A stretch of 64,000 nt of DNA from Gemmatimonadota bacterium (lineage in GTDB: Bacteria > Gemmatimonadota > Gemmatimonadetes > Gemmatimonadales > GWC2-71-9). The notes under the pieces were generated by a model. That model was not told the DNA's origin. It did not search any database and saw nothing but the letters and a program-made list of their open reading frames with translations. Made by a program: the position numbers and the translations under genes. The DNA is taken from the NCBI GenBank assembly GCA_039588295.1, contig JBDHAB010000004.1, positions 32,001 to 96,000 of the forward strand. The letters are read 5' to 3'. This document shows, piece after piece, positions 34,410-47,244 of the stretch. The number at the start of each line of letters is the position of its first letter. Position 1 is the stretch's first letter.

Positions 34410-35638
34410 GCGTATCTCCGAGCCCCGCGCCATTCTCGCGGTCGAAGAACCTCGTTCACGTCGAGTCCGCGATGCTGCTCGAGGTGAGGCGTGATATCGA
34501 GCGACGCCGCTCCGCGAACGAAGAGGTCATCGATCTCTCGACCGAAGAGCCGGGCTTTGAGCTCCCGCGGCTCGCGGCCGATGCAGCCGTGCGGTCCATC
34601 CAGCAGGGCAAGACGCGGCTCACCGATGCGGCGGGTATCATGGAGCTTCGCGCGGCGGCGGCCCGGCACTGGTCGTTGCTGTCGGCCGGCCGTCCGGTCA
34701 ACGCGGATCACATCGTGGTGTCGACCGGCGCACGGCACGGCGTGTTCAACGCCAGTTTCGTATTGTTCGAGTCCGGTGACCGGGTCCTCGTACCGACGCC
34801 GGCGTGGCCACCCTATCAGGCGCTCGTGCGACTGGCTCGCGCCACTCCCGTGTCGGTCGCCGGAGATCCCGAGTGGAGTCTCAAGGTCAGTGTCGACGAT
34901 CTGGAGCGCGCCACCGACGCTCGAACGGCAGGATTGCTCCTCAGCTCGCCGACGAATCCGACCGGGGCGGTGTACACCCGGCCCGAGCTGAAGGCGATTT
35001 GCCAGTGGGCTCGCGAACGCGGTGTGTGGGTCGTGATCGATGAGACGTATCGGCGATTGCACTTCGGGTCGGGACCGGCACCGTCGGCGCTCGATCTCCC
35101 CGACGAGTTGGTGGAGCAGGTCGTAGTCGTGTCTGGCTTGGGAAAGACGTATGCTATGACGGGCTGGCGAATCGGCATCACGATCGCCCCGTCGGAAGTC
35201 TCGCGCGCCATGGCCATGCTCCAGGAGTACGTCACGGGCGGGGCATCACAGCCTGCGCAATGGGCCGCAGCGGTCGCGCTCTCCGATGACCGGATCGAGG
35301 CTGAGATCGGGCGGACGTCGGATACGCTTCGCCGCCGCCGAGACGTTGTCGTACAGCTCCTGCGGGACCACCTGCCAGGAGTGGAGTTCGTTGAGCCGCT
35401 CGGGGCCTTCTTCATCTTCTTCCGGGTCGATGGGTTCTTTGGCGAGAAATGCACCAGCGCTCGATTGTTCTGCGAGGGCCTGTTGACCGACTACGGGGTG
35501 GCGTTGGCGCCCGGCGAAGCGTTTGGCGACGGGCGCTGGGTCAGGCTCAGCTATGCCGCGGCGCCGCGGGAGCTCGAGCGCGGATTGGAACGAATCGCCT
35601 CGTTCGGGCGGACGCTCACCAAGGGAGGCGTGTCGTGA
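34406..35638 (+). CDS. PLP-dependent aminotransferase class I/II (AspC-like)
   Basis: SPTNPTG, DETY, SGLGKTYAMTGWRIG (PLP Lys) and VRLSYA. Confidence 0.9.
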   Translation: MSVSPSPAPFSRSKNLVHVESAMLLEVRRDIERRRSANEEVIDLSTEEPGFELPRLAADAAVRSIQQGKTRLTDAAGIMELRAAAARHWSLLSAGRPVNADHIVVSTGARHGVFNASFVLFESGDRVLVPTPAWPPYQALVRLARATPVSVAGDPEWSLKVSVDDLERATDARTAGLLLSSPTNPTGAVYTRPELKAICQWARERGVWVVIDETYRRLHFGSGPAPSALDLPDELVEQVVVVSGLGKTYAMTGWRIGITIAPSEVSRAMAMLQEYVTGGASQPAQWAAAVALSDDRIEAEIGRTSDTLRRRRDVVVQLLRDHLPGVEFVEPLGAFFIFFRVDGFFGEKCTSARLFCEGLLTDYGVALAPGEAFGDGRWVRLSYAAAPRELERGLERIASFGRTLTKGGVS

Positions 35639-36159
35639 TGGGTGCCAACCGATTCGGCGCGAGAACGGAGTCGCTCGAGGGTCCCCTGCCGCATCTGGAG
35701 TACCGCTGGGACGCTGAGACGGAGATCCTGTCGGGGATGGCCAACGCGGTCGTCGGTCCCCGGGGCCTCACGGGGTCCGTCGAGCTCGAGGATGCGAAGG
35801 GCGCCGTGGTGACACTCGATTTTGCCGGGGGCGTGCTCCGCGGGCTCGAGGTGGTGGTCTGGCCAACGGTGGAATCGGTCGTGGGGCTCGCACCTCCGGC
35901 GGCGGATGAGCAGTGCCGGTTCGTGGTGCCGGCACGGCCGTCCCAGCCCGGCATCGCGGTGCTCGAGGTGGACGTACTCCTCTCGGTGGCCGCAAGCGAG
36001 GACGAATCCGTGATCCACCTAAAGGTTGGACCACGGCGAGGCCGTCGAGCCGTGGCCGTCGCCGATAACCTCCTGATCGAGCTCGACGCCGAGAGTGAGA
36101 TCGCAGGATTCTGGCTGTTGAACGTCCCACCATTTCCGACGACCAGGGAAGCACAATGA
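35638..36159 (+). CDS. Hypothetical protein with two DUF2283-like repeats
   Basis: Overlaps both neighbours at start/stop; [25 protein letters not shown] and [24 protein letters not shown]. Confidence 0.7.
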
Positions 36160-37872: not shown

Positions 37873-38826
37873 CTGACTTCGTCGACTCGACTCCGGCTCG
37901 GCGAGGTGCTGCGGCGCGCGGGCGGCACGGTCGGAGCGGGAGCGCCCCTCACGCATGCGGCCCCGCCCATCAGTGCTCCATTCGCCTCCGCCGACTACGT
38001 GGAAGGCCAGCGAATTGAGCCGATCGCCGTCGGCGGTCCAGTGGAACCCCCGGATGGGGTGGCGTTCCTCGACGGTATTCAGCGGTATGCAGTGGAGGGC
38101 CGCTTCGATGTCCTGCCGGTCGTACGCGGACATGTGGCAGCGGCCGTGCTGCGACGGGAGGGCGGGACGCTCCGCGTCGCCGTCGAAGAAGCCGAGGAAT
38201 TCCTGGTGGTGCCGCTCCAGCGGCTCAGCGCAGAGCAGCGAGGCGCACTCGACGCGGTCGGTCTTCCGATCCACGACAGTCCCGAGTCGCAACGCTCGCA
38301 CCCCATCCTGGATGTGCAGCTATCGGCCAAGGTCGTGGAGCGGCGTCGGGAATCGCTCGAAACGACTGTGGCGAAACGGTATTTGGCGGCTGACGCGGGT
38401 GGGTGGTTGGTCGTGGATGGCACCATCACGACGCTCGGTGAGGTCTTCGAAGACCACCCTCGGGTCTTGGGTCTGATCAAGAGTCACGAGACGCAATTCC
38501 TCGACGGCAACGACCTGGTTGTCGCCCTCACGCTCCCGGCCGAGCACCGAACGAGTGTGTTTGCGCGTTCGGCCGGTACCCGCGCGACGGTGTACACGTG
38601 GTATCTTCGGTTATGGCCGTGGGATGAGCAGGAGCTGCTCCACGGACTGGTTCGCATCGAGCGACCCCCGGCGCGCGACGTCGTGACCGAGGCGACGCGG
38701 CTGAGCGGTTGGCTCCTCGCCGAGCGAGCGCCGCTGTCGGCGCCCGACGGGCGTTGGGACCGTCTGCTCTATCCCATCCACCAAGTGGAGACGTATTTGC
38801 GCGCCAAGGCAGGAGGTTGGTGGTGA
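37873..38826 (+). CDS. nurA: NurA-like nuclease (RNase H fold)
   Basis: AFLDG, LVVDG, GLIKSH, WYLRL and PI..VE..L motifs; coupled to herA; start is CTG 37873 or GTG 37906. Confidence 0.75.
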   Translation: MTSSTRLRLGEVLRRAGGTVGAGAPLTHAAPPISAPFASADYVEGQRIEPIAVGGPVEPPDGVAFLDGIQRYAVEGRFDVLPVVRGHVAAAVLRREGGTLRVAVEEAEEFLVVPLQRLSAEQRGALDAVGLPIHDSPESQRSHPILDVQLSAKVVERRRESLETTVAKRYLAADAGGWLVVDGTITTLGEVFEDHPRVLGLIKSHETQFLDGNDLVVALTLPAEHRTSVFARSAGTRATVYTWYLRLWPWDEQELLHGLVRIERPPARDVVTEATRLSGWLLAERAPLSAPDGRWDRLLYPIHQVETYLRAKAGGWW

Positions 38827-40766
38827 CCGCAACCGAGCAGGGGCCCATGATCGGTCGCGTGGTGGCGACCGAGGCGCTACCCGCCGGTCCGCACCAGTTC
38901 CATTTCTGGACGGCGATCGATTCGCCGATCGGAATCGGTGCGATCGTCCGGGTCGATGCGTCGAGCCCGCGCTCCGTGTATGCGGTTGTGATCGATGGCC
39001 GTGCCTACTCGGACCTGGCGACCCCGTTGCACGAGGTCGTCGCCGCACAGGGCGACCCGCGCGGTCAGACCGTGCCGACCCGGCGCACGGAGATCCGTCT
39101 CTGGACCGCCGCTGTCCTGCGACATGAGCCGGAAGAGCCGGTCCAGCCGGTCCCGTTGGCCGAGGTCCGGTTAGCCACCGAGCAGGATGTCGCAATGGCG
39201 TTGCGCATGGACGCGTACATGCGAGCGGAGACGCCGACAGGGGTCCCGATTGGCGTGTACCGCGGCGGCGGGCTCACCGCCCCCGTGCTCGTGGACGCCG
39301 ATTTCCTGCTCGGGCCCGAGTCGGCGCATCTCAACATCAGCGGGGTGTCCGGTCTGGCGACCAAGACAAGTGCGGTCGAGTTCTTCTTGTCGAGCATCTT
39401 CCAACGGTTGCCTGATCACAAGGGGAGCGTCGCGGCGGTCTGTTTCAACGTCAAGGGGCCCGATCTGTGTTTTCTCGACCAGGCCGGTGATCTCGCAGAC
39501 GCCGACCGCGAATTGTATGCGTCCCTCGGTCTCGAGGCTCGGCCGTTTGACCGTGTCCGCTATTTCGCACCGTTCAAGGCCGACGGGGTCAATCTGAACA
39601 CCTTGCGCTCCCATCCCGACGTGGTCGGATCGGTGCAGCCCCTGGTCTGGGGCCTGAGGGAAGTGCTCGGTTACCACGAGGTGCTCCTGAATCGGGACGA
39701 TATCGATGCCAAGGCGGACGCGTTCCTGGATTTCCTCGCGGATCGTGTGCTCGAGAAAGAGTTCCATGACGATTGGGGCGGCACCCATCGCGTGCGGAGC
39801 TTCGCGGACCTCGACAGGCTCTTTCGCAGCATCTTTGACGGTCTCGAGCACGCGGGACGCGGCGACGTCTGGCGGACGCACCACATCGCAACCATACGCA
39901 AGGTGCGAAACCGGTTGCTCAATATCTCGACGCGATGCAGGGGGCTGGTCACCGACGACGGGACGGTGAGCGATCTCCCCTTTGGCGCGTTCGAGGATCG
40001 GGGCATCTACGTCATCGACGTGGCCGGGATGGACCAGGTAGCGCAGGATCTAGTGTTCACGCGCGTCGTATCGATGCTGCGAGACCACTTGGAACGACGG
40101 GATCTCGGCGTCGACAACGTGATCGTGTTCGTCGACGAGCTGAACAAGTACGCCCCAACGGAAGGACCGGAAACCTACGTGCGGAAGATGTTGCTGGACA
40201 TCTCCGAGCGCGGTCGCTACCTCGGATTGGTGCTGTTTGCCACGCAACAGTTTCGCTCCCAGGTGCACCGGCGGGTCGTGGGAAACGCGGGAACGCTCGT
40301 GTTCGGCCGCATGGATATGGACGAGCTGGCGACGCCGGGGTACCAGGTATTGTCGCCGGCGACCAAGATCAAGTTGGCAACGCTTCCGAAGGGTGAGCTG
40401 ATGGTGCGGCATCCGCACTTTACCCAGCCCGTGTTCGTCCGGTTTCCGCGACCGGCGGTTCTCACGGGTCCGGCCGGCATCAAGCGCTTCCCGCCGGTTG
40501 CCGATGTGGGGTTCGAGGACGCGGTGGTGCGGCAGTTGGCCGCGCTCGACAAGCGGGTGCCGGTCGCGCGTGTCAGAGATGCGATCGCCGACCGTCGAGA
40601 GGATGATGTGCGCCGGGCCTTACTGACCACGAGACGGGTTCGCCCGGACGATGTGTTCAGCTACTTCCTTGCGGCCTTGGGTCCAGCGGTGCCCCGCGAG
40701 CACGTGCCGCAGACAGCGCACGCCGCCGCACCGCTGCGTACCGTGGACGATCCCTATGGCACGTAG
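38823..40766 (+). CDS. herA: HerA-like ATPase/DNA translocase
   Basis: N-terminal HAS-barrel-like region (IGRVV), HLNISGVSGLATKTS Walker A variant, FNVKG.D, VFVDELNKY Walker B, ERGRYLG..LFATQ. Confidence 0.85.
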   Translation: MTATEQGPMIGRVVATEALPAGPHQFHFWTAIDSPIGIGAIVRVDASSPRSVYAVVIDGRAYSDLATPLHEVVAAQGDPRGQTVPTRRTEIRLWTAAVLRHEPEEPVQPVPLAEVRLATEQDVAMALRMDAYMRAETPTGVPIGVYRGGGLTAPVLVDADFLLGPESAHLNISGVSGLATKTSAVEFFLSSIFQRLPDHKGSVAAVCFNVKGPDLCFLDQAGDLADADRELYASLGLEARPFDRVRYFAPFKADGVNLNTLRSHPDVVGSVQPLVWGLREVLGYHEVLLNRDDIDAKADAFLDFLADRVLEKEFHDDWGGTHRVRSFADLDRLFRSIFDGLEHAGRGDVWRTHHIATIRKVRNRLLNISTRCRGLVTDDGTVSDLPFGAFEDRGIYVIDVAGMDQVAQDLVFTRVVSMLRDHLERRDLGVDNVIVFVDELNKYAPTEGPETYVRKMLLDISERGRYLGLVLFATQQFRSQVHRRVVGNAGTLVFGRMDMDELATPGYQVLSPATKIKLATLPKGELMVRHPHFTQPVFVRFPRPAVLTGPAGIKRFPPVADVGFEDAVVRQLAALDKRVPVARVRDAIADRREDDVRRALLTTRRVRPDDVFSYFLAALGPAVPREHVPQTAHAAAPLRTVDDPYGT

Positions 40767-41670
40767 GCCGTCGTCGCCGCTGGTGCTGTGCGGCGTCGTC
40801 TGTACGATGCTCGGCGGGGTTCCGCGTGCCGCGGCGGCGCAGGAGAGTATTCTCCTCCGGTACAACCCGCAGCCGGGCGCATGGGTGCGGCAAATCTGGT
40901 GGTCCGAGGTTACCAGCACGATTCTCGACGAGGGAGGCGGAAAGGGGGACCTGAGTGTGGAGGCGGTGGGCGTCCAGAGCATTACGTCTCGGGTTCTCGA
41001 GATCGACGACAATCGCCGGGTGCTCGAGGTGACGCGCGACTCGCTGCGTGCGCGGGTTCGACAGTTCGGTGGCATCTGGAGGACCTCGGCGGATACGAGC
41101 GGCCCGAAACCGAGTGCGCAGCTCGTTGTGGATGATCGACTGCGGGTAACGGATCTTCGGGCGCCGGCTGGCGTCAGCCTGTCCCGCCGGCACCGGGAGA
41201 CCCTCCGCGCATTCGCGGCTGGATTCGAGTTGGCCCTCCCGGAGCAGCCGATCACCGTTGGACAGACCTGGTCCGCCGACGTCATCTACCCGATCGACGA
41301 ACCCCTGGGTGTGGAGGACGAACCGGATATCGCGACGTGGTTCTCACGGTGGGATGACATCGTCGCGCGCTCGACCTTTCAGCTCGACAGCCTCGTACCG
41401 CGCGGGACCGATACCCTGGCCTATCTCCGAGTCCAGGGGCGGTTTGTGCCCGCGACCATCGCCCCCCCCGCGGAGCTTTCGGCGGGACGAGCGCGATTGG
41501 ACGGTACCTTTGGTGGAACGCTGATCTGGTCGACCAGTTGGAACGCGTTCGTGTCGGGAGCCGTTCGCAGCCTGGTGGGCATGACGGCGTTCCAGGGGCC
41601 GCCGGAGCAAGAGCGTCCGGCCTTCACGCTCCGCCTGGACATCATCAGCCGGCTGCAGGTGCGTCTATGA
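40756..41670 (+). CDS. Hypothetical secreted beta-rich protein (paralog A; DUF6263-like)
   Basis: Signal peptide ending AAA-QE; LPEQPITVGQTW motif; overlaps the herA stop. Confidence 0.75.
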   Translation: MARRPSSPLVLCGVVCTMLGGVPRAAAAQESILLRYNPQPGAWVRQIWWSEVTSTILDEGGGKGDLSVEAVGVQSITSRVLEIDDNRRVLEVTRDSLRARVRQFGGIWRTSADTSGPKPSAQLVVDDRLRVTDLRAPAGVSLSRRHRETLRAFAAGFELALPEQPITVGQTWSADVIYPIDEPLGVEDEPDIATWFSRWDDIVARSTFQLDSLVPRGTDTLAYLRVQGRFVPATIAPPAELSAGRARLDGTFGGTLIWSTSWNAFVSGAVRSLVGMTAFQGPPEQERPAFTLRLDIISRLQVRL

Positions 41671-42512
41671 GCGGACGCGTCCTCGTGGCGACCGCGGCGC
41701 TCCTGGCCACCGGATTGCCGGCCGTCGCGCAAACGAGTGTCCGGCTCCGGTTCGCTCCGCAGAGGGGCGTGGCGATGCAGCGGGTGTTCCAGACGCACAC
41801 CCGCTTGTCGCTGCCCGCCCAGGACGCGGGGGTGATGCAGGTCCGGGAAGTCGGGTACGTGGGTGGCGCGACCCAGTCGATGCTCGGTAGGCGGCGCCAG
41901 GAGTCGGTCGTCCACGTCAACCTCGATTCGTTGCGGAGTCGCATGCGTGAGGCCGGCGGACCGTGGCGCGAGGTTCGCATGGCGGGGCTCGACTCCGTGT
42001 GGATGCAGGTGACATTGGACGAACAGATGCACGTGCTGCGCCAGGCTGCGGCGACCGCGGGACTCGGGCGCGACTTGCTCTTGCAGCTCCTCACCGGGGC
42101 ACCGGGGCTCGTCGTCCCGGCACGACCGGTGCGCCGTGGTGAGCAATGGCGTGCGGAACTCGACGTGGGACTTGGCGACGTTGCGCTCGGAGCGCCCGCG
42201 TCGGGGCCGGAGCGGTTGAGCGTTCGCGCGACCGTCGTGGTCGACAGTATCGTGGCGCGGTCACACGACACGTTGGCCTACCTGTCACTCCGCGGGCCCG
42301 TGGAGCCGAGGGGCGTTTCCGCACCGGGAGGACGAACGCTGCGTTACGCGGGAGGGATGACCGGCGGAGTCGTCTGGTCGACGGGTTGGGGTGGCGTCGT
42401 CTCAACGGCTATCAGGTTCGAGCTGCGGATCGACGCCCCCGCCGCCCCCGGCGACCGGACTACGCGTCCCGTGACCATCGAAACCACGATCCGACACGCT
42501 GTGGTCCCGTGA
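41667..42512 (+). CDS. Hypothetical secreted beta-rich protein (paralog B)
   Basis: Signal peptide ending AVA-QT; shares colinear blocks with paralog A; ATGA overlap. Confidence 0.75.
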   Translation: MSGRVLVATAALLATGLPAVAQTSVRLRFAPQRGVAMQRVFQTHTRLSLPAQDAGVMQVREVGYVGGATQSMLGRRRQESVVHVNLDSLRSRMREAGGPWREVRMAGLDSVWMQVTLDEQMHVLRQAAATAGLGRDLLLQLLTGAPGLVVPARPVRRGEQWRAELDVGLGDVALGAPASGPERLSVRATVVVDSIVARSHDTLAYLSLRGPVEPRGVSAPGGRTLRYAGGMTGGVVWSTGWGGVVSTAIRFELRIDAPAAPGDRTTRPVTIETTIRHAVVP

Positions 42513-42515
42513 ACC

Positions 42516-43706
42516 ATGAAGCTCGCTCATCTCGCGGACGTCCACTTGGGCTTCCGCCAGTACCATCGGCTCACACCTCACGGGATCAATCAGCGCGAGG
42601 CGGATGTCGCGGCTGCCTTTCGCCAGACGATCGAGGACATCATTCGGGCGGCTCCCGACGTCGTCATCATTGCAGGAGATCTGTTTAACTCCGTACGGCC
42701 GACGAACCCAGCCATCCTCCACTCGTTTGGCCTGCTGAGCAATCTCCGCTCATCGCTGCCCGCCACTCCGGTCGTGCTTGTTGCGGGCAATCACGACACG
42801 CCACGCTCCACAGAGACCGGCACGATTCTCAAGCTGTTCGAGGCGGTCGACGGTGTGCATGTCGTGGCTGATCGGACACGCGACCTCGCGTTCCACGCAG
42901 GGGATCTCACGATACGATGTGTGCCGCACGTTGCGTGGCTGACGGCCCCACGACCGACCCTCACCCCTCCGCGCGGATCCGGCCGCAACATCGTCGTGAC
43001 ACATGGAGAGATTGCGGGAGTCATACGTCCGGATGCCTGGGCGCTCGAATACGGTGGTGCGCTCGTGGACCGTGCCGAGCTACATGCAGAGCGCTGGGAC
43101 TACGTGGCGCTGGGACACTATCACGTCGCCCACCAAGTGGCCGACAACGCCTGGTACAGCGGCGCGTTGGAATACGTGAGCACCAATCCTTGGGGTGAGT
43201 TGCAGGATGAGGCTCGAGAAGGACGGGCGGGTCAGAAGGGCTGGCTACTCGTCGAGCTTGGCGATGGTGCACCCAACGTACAGTTCCGGCCGATTTCGTT
43301 GGCGCGCAGCCCCATCGACCTGCCGGCGATTCATGCCGCCGGTCTCAACGCGGGGGAGATCGATCAGCAGGTATACGAGCATGTAGACGCTGTCGACGGC
43401 GGCATCGACAACCACATTGTTCGCCAGCTCGTCTTCGACGTACCAAGGCCCGTCGCTCGCGACCTGAACCACGCGCGACTGCGTGAGCTCAAGGCGCGGG
43501 CGCTCCACTTCAACCTCGACGTGCGCAGGCCGCCATCCCGCCGCGAGGTCGGTGTGGGAGCCCCCGGGGAACGTCGTACGCTGGCGGACGTTGTCACCGA
43601 ATACCTCAGCGAACGCCTTCTGGATGCCGAGGTGCCTCGCGATCGACTGGTGGCGCTCGGGAAGCAGTACCTCGAAGAGGTCGAGAGAGGGTTGCTCGAG
43701 GAATAG
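42516..43706 (+). CDS. sbcD: Mre11/SbcD nuclease
   Basis: HLADVHLG, IAGDLF, AGNHD, VTHG and YVALGHYH phosphoesterase motifs. Confidence 0.93.
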   Translation: MKLAHLADVHLGFRQYHRLTPHGINQREADVAAAFRQTIEDIIRAAPDVVIIAGDLFNSVRPTNPAILHSFGLLSNLRSSLPATPVVLVAGNHDTPRSTETGTILKLFEAVDGVHVVADRTRDLAFHAGDLTIRCVPHVAWLTAPRPTLTPPRGSGRNIVVTHGEIAGVIRPDAWALEYGGALVDRAELHAERWDYVALGHYHVAHQVADNAWYSGALEYVSTNPWGELQDEAREGRAGQKGWLLVELGDGAPNVQFRPISLARSPIDLPAIHAAGLNAGEIDQQVYEHVDAVDGGIDNHIVRQLVFDVPRPVARDLNHARLRELKARALHFNLDVRRPPSRREVGVGAPGERRTLADVVTEYLSERLLDAEVPRDRLVALGKQYLEEVERGLLEE

Positions 43707-46136
43707 ATGCGACTCCACCGCCTCAAGCTGCTCAATTTCCGGCAACACGCGTCGACGGAGATCGTCTTCGGATCCGGAATCACGGCGATCATCGGGCCTA
43801 ATGGATCCGGCAAGACGACGCTGCTCGAGGCGATTGCGTGGGCGTTCTACGGTAACCCGGCGGCGCGCGGGTCCCGCGATTCCATTCGCTGGAACCGTGC
43901 GGCGGCACGGGCGTCCGTGCGCGTCGAGGTGGAGTTTGGGCTTGGTGCGCATGAGTTCCGCGTCGCGCGGGGACTGTACGCGGCCGAGTTCTACCAGGAT
44001 CGATTCGACGCGCCCACCGCTGTCGGGCATCAAGAGGTAACGAGTAGGGTGGCACGACTCCTCGGTATGTCGCGGACGGAGTTCTTCAGTACCTACTTCA
44101 CGGGACAAAAGGAACTCGCGGTGATGGCGTCGCTCGGGCCCGCCGACCGCGCCAGGTTTCTCTCGCGCGTACTCGGATATGAGAAACTCAAGCTGGCGCA
44201 GGATCGGCTGCGCGAGACCCGCTCCTCGTTGCGCGGCGAGTTGGCCGGCCTCGAACGCGGGCTCGCTGACCCGGACGAGCTGAAACGCGACTATGACGCC
44301 GCGGCTGAGCGGCTGGCGGAGGTCAAACGTGAGGCGGCGGCCGCGGAGACCGCTACAACCGCTGCTCGGCAACGACTCGACCGCGAGGGGCCGGTCTGGA
44401 CGAAGATGGTGGCATTGCGTGAACGCTCGCTTGCGCTCGATGGCGAGCGGCGGATCGCCGAACGGGACGTGGGGGAGGCACGCCGCGAGTTTGAGCGGCT
44501 CGATCGCGAACTCGCCGACGCGCTCGCCGCTAAATCGAGCCTCGAGGAGTTGGCATCGGACCTCGAGGCCGTGGACCCGTTGAAGGAGGAACTCGACCGG
44601 CTTGAGCGTGAGGCGCAGAACGCTGGTCGACGCCGCTCGGTCACCGGACAGCTGAGCGAACTCAGTGGGCAAACGGAACGCACGATCCAGCGCCTGGACC
44701 GCCTCTCGAGTATCGGCGACGCGCTACAACAGGCTCGCGCGGAGCTGGAAACGGCGCGCCGCGGGCTGCAGGAGGCCGAGCGAAGTGAAGCGGACGCGCG
44801 CACCGTGTGGGTGCGAGCCAAACAGGATGCCGAGACGAAGCGGCAGAACCTGCGCGACCAGTACCTCGACCACCAGAAGCACCGACAGAGTGTCCTCAGC
44901 GCTGGGGCGGATGGTGAGTGTCCGATCTGCCGCCGTCCGCTTGGCGCCGTCTATCAGACCGTGCTGGAGACGCTGGGCCGACAGATGGAGGAGATCGAGG
45001 TAAAGGGCAAGTTCTTCAAGCAGCGCATCGAGCAGCTCCAGAAGCAACCCCCAGAGGTTGGGGACGCGGAGCGAGCTGCCCAAGAGGCCCGGACGCACGT
45101 CGAACACACCGTTCAAGAAGTTGCGCGGTGCGAAGATCGCGTGCGTGAGGAAAAGGAGATGCGGTCCGAGCTGGAACGTCTCCAAGCAAGGCGGCAAGAG
45201 CTGGAGAACGAGATTGCGCAGCTTTCCGATGCATATGATGCAAGCCGCCACGAAGAAGTACGCCAGCAGCTACGCGCGCTCGAACCCACCATTCGGACGG
45301 CTGCGGAGCTGGGTATCAAGGCATCGCGTGCGGAGGCGCTCGTGCAGGAGGCGGAAGCTGCCGAGCGCAACGCCTCGGAGCGGGAGACCCGTGCGCGTGA
45401 TTTCGCCGAGGCCCTGCAATCGCTGGGATTCAGCGAACAGGCCTTCGCAGAAGCGCGGGCGCGGTACGAGGAAGCGGAAGCCGAACGCCAGGAAACCGAG
45501 TTGCGTGTGGCTTCGGTGCAGGGGGACCTGCGCGCGGCTGAAGCTGCGGCCACGCATGCGAAACGCCGCATCGAAGAGCGCCGGGAACGCGCGGATCGGA
45601 TCCAGGAGACCAAGACGGAGCTTGCGTTGCACGACGAGCTTGATCGTGCGTTGCAGGACCTCCGCGCCGAGCTCAACGCGGCGATGCGGCCGGAACTGGC
45701 GGAGCGGGCGTCCGACTTCTTGGGTAGTCTCACGGATGGTCGGTATGCGGAGCTGGAGCTCGACGAGCACTACGAGGTCCTGATCGTCGAAGACGGTCAG
45801 GCCAAACCCGTGATCTCGGGAGGTGAGGAGGACATGCTCCACCTCTCCTTGCGACTCGCCATCAGCCAGATGGTTGCCGAGCGGGCTGGGCAACCACTGT
45901 CGCTGCTCGTGCTTGACGAGATCTTTGGCAGTCTGGACGAGGCACGACGTCACAATGTCGTGGCATTGCTGCGTGGACTGGCGGATCGGTTCCCCCAGGT
46001 CATCCTGATTACCCATATCGAATCGGTGCGGGACGGAGTCGATCGAGTGCTGCGAGTCGAATTGGACGAAGAAACGGGCGCTGCTCGACTGACCGATGAC
46101 GAGATACCGGTTGGAGGTGCGGATGTGGCGGCCTGA
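43707..46136 (+). CDS. sbcC: Rad50/SbcC SMC-family ATPase
   Basis: GPNGSGKTT Walker A, central CPIC zinc hook (about residue 405 of 809), ISGGE signature, LVLDE Walker B, ILITH. Confidence 0.93.
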   Translation: MRLHRLKLLNFRQHASTEIVFGSGITAIIGPNGSGKTTLLEAIAWAFYGNPAARGSRDSIRWNRAAARASVRVEVEFGLGAHEFRVARGLYAAEFYQDRFDAPTAVGHQEVTSRVARLLGMSRTEFFSTYFTGQKELAVMASLGPADRARFLSRVLGYEKLKLAQDRLRETRSSLRGELAGLERGLADPDELKRDYDAAAERLAEVKREAAAAETATTAARQRLDREGPVWTKMVALRERSLALDGERRIAERDVGEARREFERLDRELADALAAKSSLEELASDLEAVDPLKEELDRLEREAQNAGRRRSVTGQLSELSGQTERTIQRLDRLSSIGDALQQARAELETARRGLQEAERSEADARTVWVRAKQDAETKRQNLRDQYLDHQKHRQSVLSAGADGECPICRRPLGAVYQTVLETLGRQMEEIEVKGKFFKQRIEQLQKQPPEVGDAERAAQEARTHVEHTVQEVARCEDRVREEKEMRSELERLQARRQELENEIAQLSDAYDASRHEEVRQQLRALEPTIRTAAELGIKASRAEALVQEAEAAERNASERETRARDFAEALQSLGFSEQAFAEARARYEEAEAERQETELRVASVQGDLRAAEAAATHAKRRIEERRERADRIQETKTELALHDELDRALQDLRAELNAAMRPELAERASDFLGSLTDGRYAELELDEHYEVLIVEDGQAKPVISGGEEDMLHLSLRLAISQMVAERAGQPLSLLVLDEIFGSLDEARRHNVVALLRGLADRFPQVILITHIESVRDGVDRVLRVELDEETGAARLTDDEIPVGGADVAA

Positions 46137-47091
46137 GAGGCTGCTGCTGGGTCCGCGGATGGCGTCGCCGGCAGACATCGAATCGCTGAATCGCGTGTTC
46201 GCGGACGCGTTCACGGAACGCTATCACCGCGACGGATTGGTCGGCGTGCGGGTTCCGCAGCTCAACCCGGACATTTGGCGGTACGCGCTTCGGGACGCAG
46301 GGGCGGGTGCGATGCTGTGGTACGATGAACACGATGGGCTGGTGGCCTTCAACATGGTCCACCGCTCCGGGGCTGAAGGGTGGATGGGCCCGCTTGCCGT
46401 GCGCACCGATCGCCAGGAGATGGGGGTAGGGAGGACCATCGTCTCGGCTGCGATCGACTGGTTGTCCACGCAGGGGGTCTCGACCATCGGCTTGGAAACG
46501 ATGCCGCGAACCGTCGAGAATATTGGCTTCTACAGTCGCATGGGCTTCGCCCCGAATCATCTGACCGTGACGATGACGGGTCATGCCGCCCGACGACGCG
46601 TGGCCGGCAAGGTGGTCCGGCTGAGCGAGCTCAGGCCTGACGAACGGTCGGCGCTTGCCGAACGGTGTCGTAGGCGTCTCGAACAGTCAGCCCGAGGCTA
46701 CGATTACCGTCGTGAAATGGATTTGACGGCAGAGCTTGCGTTGGGCGACACGATTGTCGTGGAGGGTGACCGGGACGTCGCCGGATTTGCGATTTGGCAC
46801 TCGGCCGCGCTGGTCGGTGGGCGGCCGTCCGAGGAACTCCGTGTGCTCAAGTTGTTTGCGGACTCTATCGAGACCTTCGTGCGCTTGCTGGTGGCCTTGG
46901 AAGGGTGCGCGGCAGCGGTGGGCGTGCGTCTCGTGGCGATTCGGTGTCAGACCGGTCTCACGCACGCGTACGGGGCGTTGGTGGAACGCGGCTACCACGT
47001 CCGCTGGACCGATCTCCGCATGACATTGGAGGGCTACGCGGAGCCGACCCTTCCCGAGAGCGAGGTCCTCTTCTCGAACTGGGAAATCTGA
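46123..47091 (+). CDS. GNAT family N-acetyltransferase (probably tandem domain)
   Basis: GPLAV..RQEMGVGR (QxxGxG) and NIGFYSRMGF; GGAGG RBS lies inside the sbcC 3' end. Confidence 0.85.
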   Translation: MWRPERLLLGPRMASPADIESLNRVFADAFTERYHRDGLVGVRVPQLNPDIWRYALRDAGAGAMLWYDEHDGLVAFNMVHRSGAEGWMGPLAVRTDRQEMGVGRTIVSAAIDWLSTQGVSTIGLETMPRTVENIGFYSRMGFAPNHLTVTMTGHAARRRVAGKVVRLSELRPDERSALAERCRRRLEQSARGYDYRREMDLTAELALGDTIVVEGDRDVAGFAIWHSAALVGGRPSEELRVLKLFADSIETFVRLLVALEGCAAAVGVRLVAIRCQTGLTHAYGALVERGYHVRWTDLRMTLEGYAEPTLPESEVLFSNWEI

Positions 47092-47244
47092 TTAGCGTCG
47101 CGGTGTGGAGACCAATCCCCGAGCGACCAGCACGCATCCTGCTGCGAGGAGTGTGTGGACCCAGCCGCTGGGTATGGCTGCGACAAAGGCGAGTGCCAAC
47201 CAGCCCACCAGACAGATGACACCCGCCAAGAGATAGACGTTCAT
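47092..47244 (-). CDS. 50-aa two-helix membrane protein (lmo0937/DUF5670-like; not in the ORF track)
   Basis: Manual translation MNVYLLAGVICLVGWLALAFVAAIPSGWVHTLLAAGCVLVARGLVSTPRR*; GGAG RBS. Confidence 0.7.
   Translation of the reverse strand: MNVYLLAGVICLVGWLALAFVAAIPSGWVHTLLAAGCVLVARGLVSTPRR

Follow-up and report, generated by a model that had tools for sequence, protein, structure and literature searches.

Across a whole bacterial order, the Gemmatimonadales, the four-gene block nurA-herA-mre11-rad50 is the rule rather than the exception; it reappears in a second phylum, and its products would most likely act as a housekeeping system for the processing of DNA ends. The example considered here lies in a window of 64,000 nucleotides (nt) from a Gemmatimonadota bacterium (assembly GCA_039588295.1, contig JBDHAB010000004.1, positions 32,001 to 96,000 of the forward strand). 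Seven plus-strand open reading frames (ORFs) occupy positions 37873-47091 of this window, in the order nurA, herA, two DUF6263-like genes, mre11 (sbcD), rad50 (sbcC) and a gene for a GNAT acetyltransferase. The gaps between them are -4 nt (nurA/herA), -11 (herA/first DUF6263-like gene), -4 (between the two DUF6263-like genes), 3 (second DUF6263-like gene/sbcD), 0 (sbcD/sbcC) and -14 (sbcC/GNAT). A first-pass annotation made from the sequence alone had described this cluster of overlapping or abutting genes, together with the paralogous pair and the GNAT, and all seven ORFs are found where it placed them. Its coordinates hold, but the first start codon is a CTG and the overlapping run already begins upstream of nurA, from dmpA onward.

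The first ORF (37873..38826, plus strand) encodes 317 amino acids (aa) when read from the CTG and is NurA, a nuclease whose profile and predicted model both indicate the RNase H-like NurA fold of the Deinococcus/Thermotoga type. Profiles are needed for this identification, because single-sequence searches with the window protein against Pfam (E ≤ 0.05, including PF09376), NCBIfam and the PDB gave no match. A profile built from 115 sequences matches Deinococcus radiodurans NurA (7f6d_H, E 1.3e-10) and TM1739 of Thermotoga maritima (1zup, E 1.7e-9), and the predicted model, with a predicted local distance difference test (pLDDT) value of 88, has 7f6d_G (E 2.6e-12, template modelling (TM) score 0.61), 1zup and 2ygk as its first Foldseek matches. 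The first GTG, at 37906, is an alternative start to the CTG at 37873, and relatives keep the extra residues. Two DG motifs (D67-G68 and D182-G183), K203 and R294 are present in the protein; K203 aligns to K201 of D. radiodurans NurA (drNurA), and we infer from motif I that D67 corresponds to drNurA D53. Of 88 order genomes, an even sample from which one unpublished genome (G153) was left out, 80 retain this first catalytic aspartate, which has been lost in three separate events (8/88). The suggestion that NurA is widely dead, to which the absence of D67 from 26 of 58 close loci might lead, was rejected on the count from the even sample, where six of the eight losses come from one genus.

The second ORF (38823..40766, plus strand, 647 aa) is a HerA ATPase of the Deinococcus type. 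Its sole significant PDB match is D. radiodurans HerA (drHerA; 7f6d_B, E 6.6e-44, over residues 4-314 and 356-548); no archaeal HerA was matched in the PDB at E ≤ 1, and the Pfam and NCBIfam searches gave no match. The aligned parts take in the N-terminal barrel as well as the RecA-like ATPase. Walker A (K181/T182), D214, Walker B (D438/E439) and R465 are intact in the window protein, and the ATPase motifs (Walker A and B, ASCE acid and arginine finger) are invariant in 119 Gemmatimonadota HerA sequences, a set in which some genomes are counted twice. A decay of HerA after the loss of nurA was considered and rejected, as these motifs are intact in 23/23 sequences without a full nurA in the locus, a few of which have nurA further away. 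Several nurA-less loci (L144, L160, L034, L058) carry a methyltransferase-like ORF, recognised by eye, directly upstream of herA.

What sets this HerA apart is its pore. In drNurA-HerA, the pore arginines R495 and R552 are reported to be required for the translocation of double-stranded DNA, and the changes R495A and R552A each to abolish 5' resection (PMC9960219). In the alignment to 7f6d_B these arginines correspond to T446 and T504 of the window protein, and none of the 119 sequences has arginine or lysine at either position. Metagenome HerAs of the same subtype likewise lack them, whereas in clusters with a canonical SbcCD, described below, arginine or lysine is present at the R495 and R552 positions in 11/16 and 10/16 HerAs, respectively. 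Conversely, R478 is invariant in the Gemmatimonadota set (119/119, against 0/16 in the canonical-SbcCD clusters), and FRSQ is present in 27/27 parsed metagenome HerAs (34 examined). R478 sits just after the strand following Walker B, and the DNA-binding loop of FtsK is placed after the equivalent strand (PMC9960219); it is a candidate for the residue that grips DNA in place of the lost pore arginines. C-terminal to the stretch alignable with Deinococcus HerA, about 100 further aa (about 40470-40766) form a conserved extension.

The Mre11/SbcD nuclease (42516..43706, plus strand, 396 aa) matches PF00149 with an E value of 1.5e-12, and its phosphoesterase motif residues D8, H10, D55, H93, D94, H163 and H203 are invariant in 59 aligned relatives. 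Rad50/SbcC (43707..46136, plus strand, 809 aa) has a complete set of ATP-binding cassette (ABC) motifs, with Walker A at 30, the signature at 703 and Walker B at 734, as well as a coiled coil and a central CPIC zinc hook (405-408) in which C405 and C408 are invariant in 59 aligned relatives. For both proteins the PDB ranking places Mre11/Rad50 of Pyrococcus furiosus and Methanocaldococcus jannaschii above the proteins of T. maritima, Staphylococcus aureus and Escherichia coli. Amongst the NCBIfam models SbcC scores best on archaeal Rad50 (PRK03918, 206 bits, against 95 for TIGR00618), whilst the margin for SbcD is small (Mre11_Sulfo 80, TIGR00619 72), and these scores are below the cut-offs. 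The term archaeal-like refers here to a score ranking and not to an origin. The label archaeal-style, given to the whole operon in the first-pass annotation, suits Mre11 and Rad50, which score nearer the archaeal models, but not NurA and HerA, which are of the Deinococcus type. A search for SbcD homologs returned close relatives only among the 120 matches listed. An Arcobacter plasmid (CP134857, L148) encodes an SbcD/SbcC pair of the short archaeal-Rad50-like type (790 aa), with herA and nurA absent nearby.

The linkage of the four genes was followed in 98 HerA loci, made up of the 80 closest records, all of them from Gemmatimonadota, and 18 chosen genomes of a sister family. All four core genes are present in 79 of these, 14 end at contig ends and 5 are incomplete, so that the earlier caveat that the cluster may be common in its phylum was well placed as far as the order is concerned. 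Synteny within the order is weak evidence, because conservation extends to the metabolic genes on either side. A stronger test comes from outside the order: when metagenomes were scanned with 14 NurA representatives that are not from Gemmatimonadota, 80 loci were obtained, of which 23 have nurA-herA-mre11-rad50 of the same subtype and 36 end at contig ends; the others have nurA-herA only (3), nurA alone (17) or a widely spaced arrangement (1). The metagenome SbcC is about 810 aa long and also scores best on archaeal Rad50, and two of ten SbcD look-ups were named Armatimonadota, the remainder being without an organism. In the HerA tree, which groups by host family, metagenome and Gemmatimonadota HerAs share a branch, with the metagenome sequences on one side and the canonical-SbcCD clusters apart; one of the 23 metagenome loci (L290) groups with Gemmatimonadota. 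As the four-gene linkage recurs in metagenome loci, including the two named Armatimonadota, it is not due to chance. The two points that the first-pass annotation had singled out for checking, the NurA fold of the first ORF and the linkage of the nurA-herA and sbcDC pairs in relatives, have both been borne out, the latter within the order and in the second phylum.

A different kind of four-gene cluster, with a canonical SbcCD, is found in family f7 of the Gemmatimonadota, on a cyanobacterial plasmid (Sphaerospermopsis AP018315) and in Nonomuraea. The family f7 clusters (L105-L114, L167-L170) show two gene arrangements, herA-sbcD-sbcC-nurA as well as nurA-herA-sbcD-sbcC, and two subtypes of HerA; in one of these subtypes (L113, L168-L170) both pore arginines are likewise missing.

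The distribution was tallied across the phylum in 161 genomes, of which 115, the host included, belong to the order; G153 was used only in these tallies. Within the order GNAT is found in 115 genomes, SbcC in 113, HerA in 103 and NurA in 89. RecBCD and AddAB, for which the first-pass annotation had advised a search, and AdnAB were not found in the host genome, which is 96% complete. No AddA was found there, the best TIGR02785 match being an 827-aa UvrD-like frame, and no RecC, whilst PD-(D/E)XK gave one weak match in a 340-aa frame; 18 AddA/AddB-like proteins from relatives match only the UvrD-like gene in this genome. RecJ, RecO, LexA, Ku and a RecQ-like gene are present. The RecQ-like frame (C39:3695-7684) begins at model position 61, directly behind a tyrosine-integrase-like ORF, and an integrated element may have split recQ here.

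Across the phylum PF12705 matches 37/115 genomes of the order as against 46/46 outside it. Twenty of the 37 matches reach E ≤ 1e-20, a threshold chosen after the list had been inspected, and the five pairs that were checked are AddA/AddB-like. RecC occurs in 6/115 order genomes, all of the sister family, and adds one genome to the RecB-family count. Between 77 and 90 of the 115 genomes are consequently without a detectable RecB-family machine, these being not-found results in assemblies that are 90-100% complete, and the contrast between the order and the rest is in effect one event, one clade against others. The AddA/AddB-like pairs within the order (L115-L124) fall into two or more types that share only 27-30% identity, a divergence that suggests separate re-acquisitions. 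Within the order a RecB-family machine is commoner where nurA is missing, being found in 10/26 nurA-less and 15/89 nurA-bearing genomes (Fisher p 0.03), or in 13/26 and 25/89 when weak matches are included (p 0.06), in both cases amongst kin that are not independent.

The most likely explanation, to which we would give a probability of about one half, is that Mre11-Rad50, HerA and NurA form a housekeeping route of DNA-end processing that would run parallel to RecJ/RecFOR and independently of RecBCD. This view is built on the genes, folds, motifs, single copies, conserved order and missing RecB-family enzymes, with the catalytic steps borrowed from work on the archaeal and Deinococcus proteins. 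By that analogy Mre11-Rad50 would bind the break and clear or nick the end, after which the HerA ring would feed double-stranded DNA to a dimer of NurA for trimming of the 5' strand, and the remaining 3' tail would be passed to RecFOR/RecA. HerA would grip the DNA via residues other than those of Deinococcus HerA, with R478 as the candidate. Mre11-Rad50 would then be the stable core and NurA-HerA an add-on, which lineages could afford to lose because RecJ, it is proposed, can also resect.

Several observations weigh against this proposal. nurA was not found in 26/115 and herA in 12/115 order genomes, and 10 contiguous loci show a clean absence of both from the interval between aspC and sbcD, with sbcD-sbcC kept. 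Half of the nurA-less genomes (13/26) are also without a RecB-family match, and RecJ is present in 111/115 genomes from a different draw of the order. The pore arginines are absent throughout the 119 HerA sequences, and neither the model nor the alignment makes a pin/W8 motif of the drNurA type evident: where the Deinococcus protein has an N-terminal beta-strand, W8 and the pin region, which serve in unwinding, the window NurA model has a helix (5-15) and no tryptophan. A candidate LexA box upstream of nurA was found in 1 of 148 loci, with one in the control, although the promoter may lie further upstream. Moreover, a D. radiodurans nurA herA double mutant is reported to be more resistant to ultraviolet (UV) light and mitomycin C (PMC9960219), and Thermococcus kodakarensis HerA-NurA is reported to degrade both strands (PMC12977600). 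The published genetics of nurA-herA systems cut both ways, in that a Thermus hepA mutant is described as UV- and heat-sensitive (PMC5448004). The operon as an obligate replacement for AddAB is ruled out by the clean nurA-herA losses and by the nurA-less genomes without a RecB-family machine; with RecJ near universal and nurA not found in so many genomes, it is no obligatory substitute.

The same losses make room for the best-surviving alternative, itself improbable, in which two loosely coupled modules share one operon and no joint four-protein reaction takes place. Mre11-Rad50 would do SbcCD-type work on hairpins, blocked ends and stalled or merged forks, and NurA-HerA would modulate RecJ-based repair, as proposed for Deinococcus, where HerA is reported to interact with RecJ (PMC4663267, as cited in PMC12977600). 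Such a division is consistent with the near-constant SbcC ortholog (113/115) beside the less regular herA and nurA, with the ten clean nurA-herA losses, with the metagenome loci that have nurA-herA but no sbcDC or nurA alone, and with the short Rad50 type of the Arcobacter plasmid that has neither herA nor nurA nearby. It sits less well with a four-gene linkage that is seen for this subtype in two phyla and, independently, in clusters with a canonical SbcCD, or with a herA that lies less than 300 nt from sbcD in 27/93 loci.

Next, and no less tentative, comes a more ambitious reading, in which the cluster is a distinct bacterial subtype of Gemmatimonadales and Armatimonadota. An archaeal-like Mre11-Rad50 would have replaced AddAB in the ancestor of the order, a HerA rewired without the pore arginines would grip DNA through the new loop arginine and be able to act without NurA, and the tandem GNAT would tune Rad50 by acetylation. 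If true, bacteria would have a fourth main way of processing DNA ends.

Unlikelier again is a HerA rewired to work with Mre11-Rad50 without the need for NurA, as a remodeller or motor acting on forks or on ends blocked by protein; NurA would then be optional. Fifteen sampled order genomes in which no nurA was found still carry a herA whose ATPase motifs are all intact, and the absence of pore arginines from all 119 sequences, the invariant R478, the FRSQ of the metagenome proteins, the threefold loss of the NurA catalytic aspartate and the extra C-terminal domain all point the same way. Against it, NurA is intact in 80 of the 88 genomes examined, the window included, and herA itself is missing in 12/115; moreover, R478 may simply replace the lost arginines, and an intact HerA after a recent loss of nurA may reflect only a time lag.

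Least likely is a machine that mainly destroys unprotected linear foreign DNA of phages or plasmids, as RecBCD-like surveillance rather than repair, since the both-strand degradation and antiviral role proposed for T. kodakarensis HerA-NurA (PMC12977600), the patchy loss of nurA and the lack of an SOS-type box upstream of nurA are set against a single-copy block that holds one position amid metabolic genes throughout the order, a HerA tree that follows host family, PADLOC results with no model match for NurA and only a partial weak mad8 match for HerA, one weak 37-residue match in viral contigs, and plasmids that carry the distant type only. On the plasmid, viral-contig and PADLOC results and the fixed syntenic locus, a mobile or defence cassette is unsupported, and a defence role is not favoured.

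The remaining genes of the run appear less closely tied to the four. DUF6263-like protein 1 (40756..41670, plus strand, 304 aa), probably exported to judge from a signal peptide seen by eye, and DUF6263-like protein 2 (41667..42512, plus strand, 281 aa) are paralogs, 27% identical. Their likeness to DUF6263 comes from atlas neighbours (0.95) and from weak PF19777 matches in 3/33 alignment members (best E 2e-4), the window proteins themselves being without a Pfam match. Amongst 93 herA-sbcD intervals, 27 have no copy and a gap below 300 nt, 40 have one copy, 21 have two, and 5 have a gap but no DUF6263-like match. The GNAT (46123..47091, plus strand, 322 aa) has a tandem fold, its predicted model (pLDDT 94) matching 3ddd best in Foldseek (TM 0.66). 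Present in every order genome, it starts no more than 200 nt from the end of rad50 in 87/89 loci, but it went undetected in three genomes from outside the order with the same SbcC type. Neither the GNAT nor the DUF6263-like genes occur in any of the 23 four-gene metagenome cassettes, so both look like passengers; the DUF6263-like genes also vary in copy number, and the GNAT is, on its gene context, an order-specific neighbour that the machine elsewhere does without. The lineage-specific accessory parts that had been proposed are therefore not upheld.

Upstream of nurA, four genes labelled dmpA, aspC, a hypothetical gene and an amidohydrolase gene overlap likewise and end 64 nt before it. Overlapping packing is thus the local norm and by itself ties no gene to the machine. 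The four-gene block resembles the genome in guanine plus cytosine content and keeps a fixed chromosomal place amid metabolic genes, and the host has a single copy of each core gene. The gene for a 173-aa protein (35638-36159) without a Pfam or NCBIfam match precedes nurA or herA in most relatives and is retained where nurA-herA is lost. On the minus strand a hydrophobic 50-aa ORF (47092-47244) faces the GNAT stop codon in convergent orientation, and with it the gene run ends. A scan of the locus for promoters and terminators gave results at chance level. TTCG-N7-TTCG direct repeats, seen by eye before both lexA (host contig C52) and recA (host contig C58), are a candidate LexA box of the lineage, and the region upstream of recA also contains a long GGGAGAA tandem repeat.

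As a mesophilic bacterial setting, the order has naturally occurring losses (of nurA only, of nurA-herA or of the catalytic aspartate) that bear on whether NurA-HerA acts with Mre11-Rad50 to resect ends or serves to destroy DNA. Moreover, the HerA found here breaks a published rule on how the ring grips DNA.

Amongst known systems, the closest in layout is the nurA-hepA(herA)-sbcD-sbcC cluster of Oceanithermus profundus, a bacterial example with the four genes in identical order and with NurA and HerA of the Deinococcus-Thermus type (PMC5448004); with this report the suggestion that the arrangement was undescribed falls. That cluster is described as a late recruitment of a bacterial SbcCD (Blesa et al. 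2017, PMC5448004) in one genome, whereas the Gemmatimonadales block is order-wide, is shared with Armatimonadota and has a Mre11/Rad50 that scores best on archaeal models, a distinction drawn from the published description. D. radiodurans NurA-HerA (7F6D, 7WRW, 7WRX) is the system that both proteins match best in sequence and in fold; the deviant Walker A spacing, Walker B and the D220 and K201 equivalents are kept, and its host is likewise without RecBCD/AddAB and with RecJ. In contrast to that system, R495 and R552 are absent here, R478 is present, the HerA C-terminus is longer, the pin motif is not evident and nurA-herA is linked to mre11-rad50. The archaeal herA-mre11-rad50-nurA operon of Sulfolobus, Pyrococcus and Thermococcus (PMC4351679, PMC13748450) also brings the four functions into one operon and has a short Rad50 with a central CXXC hook, with P. 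furiosus and M. jannaschii the best PDB matches. The gene order differs, HerA and NurA here are not of the archaeal type, and the scores fall far below the NCBIfam cut-offs. Furthermore, whilst all four genes are reported to be essential in Sulfolobus islandicus (PMC4351679), the Gemmatimonadales repeatedly lose nurA-herA, and judged by distribution only, with ten such losses, the four are not all essential here.

The canonical-SbcCD clusters (f7, AP018315, Nonomuraea) share the four-gene linkage and a Deinococcus-type HerA and NurA. They differ in an SbcD that passes TIGR00619, an SbcC of 930-1150 aa that scores best on TIGR00618 and a HerA that is 26-32% identical to the window type and mostly keeps the pore arginines; the f7 hosts, unlike the order, have kept AddAB-like genes. 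The anti-phage systems Sir2-HerA and DUF4297-HerA would be marked by a match to an effector partner model and by a patchy, mobile location in defence islands, neither of which is seen at this locus. A 2026 review denies stable four-gene synteny in bacteria (PMC13748450), and no description of the cluster in Gemmatimonadota or Armatimonadota was found among the papers that the literature searches listed; Iyer et al. 2004, Constantinesco et al. 2004 and Cheng et al. 2015 may nonetheless include bacterial clusters of the four genes. With its parts and layout known, the block is an extension of these systems rather than a new one, and what is new is the combination of an archaeal-like Mre11/Rad50 with an arginine-less HerA, its order-wide spread and its occurrence in hosts that are mostly without RecBCD or AddAB.

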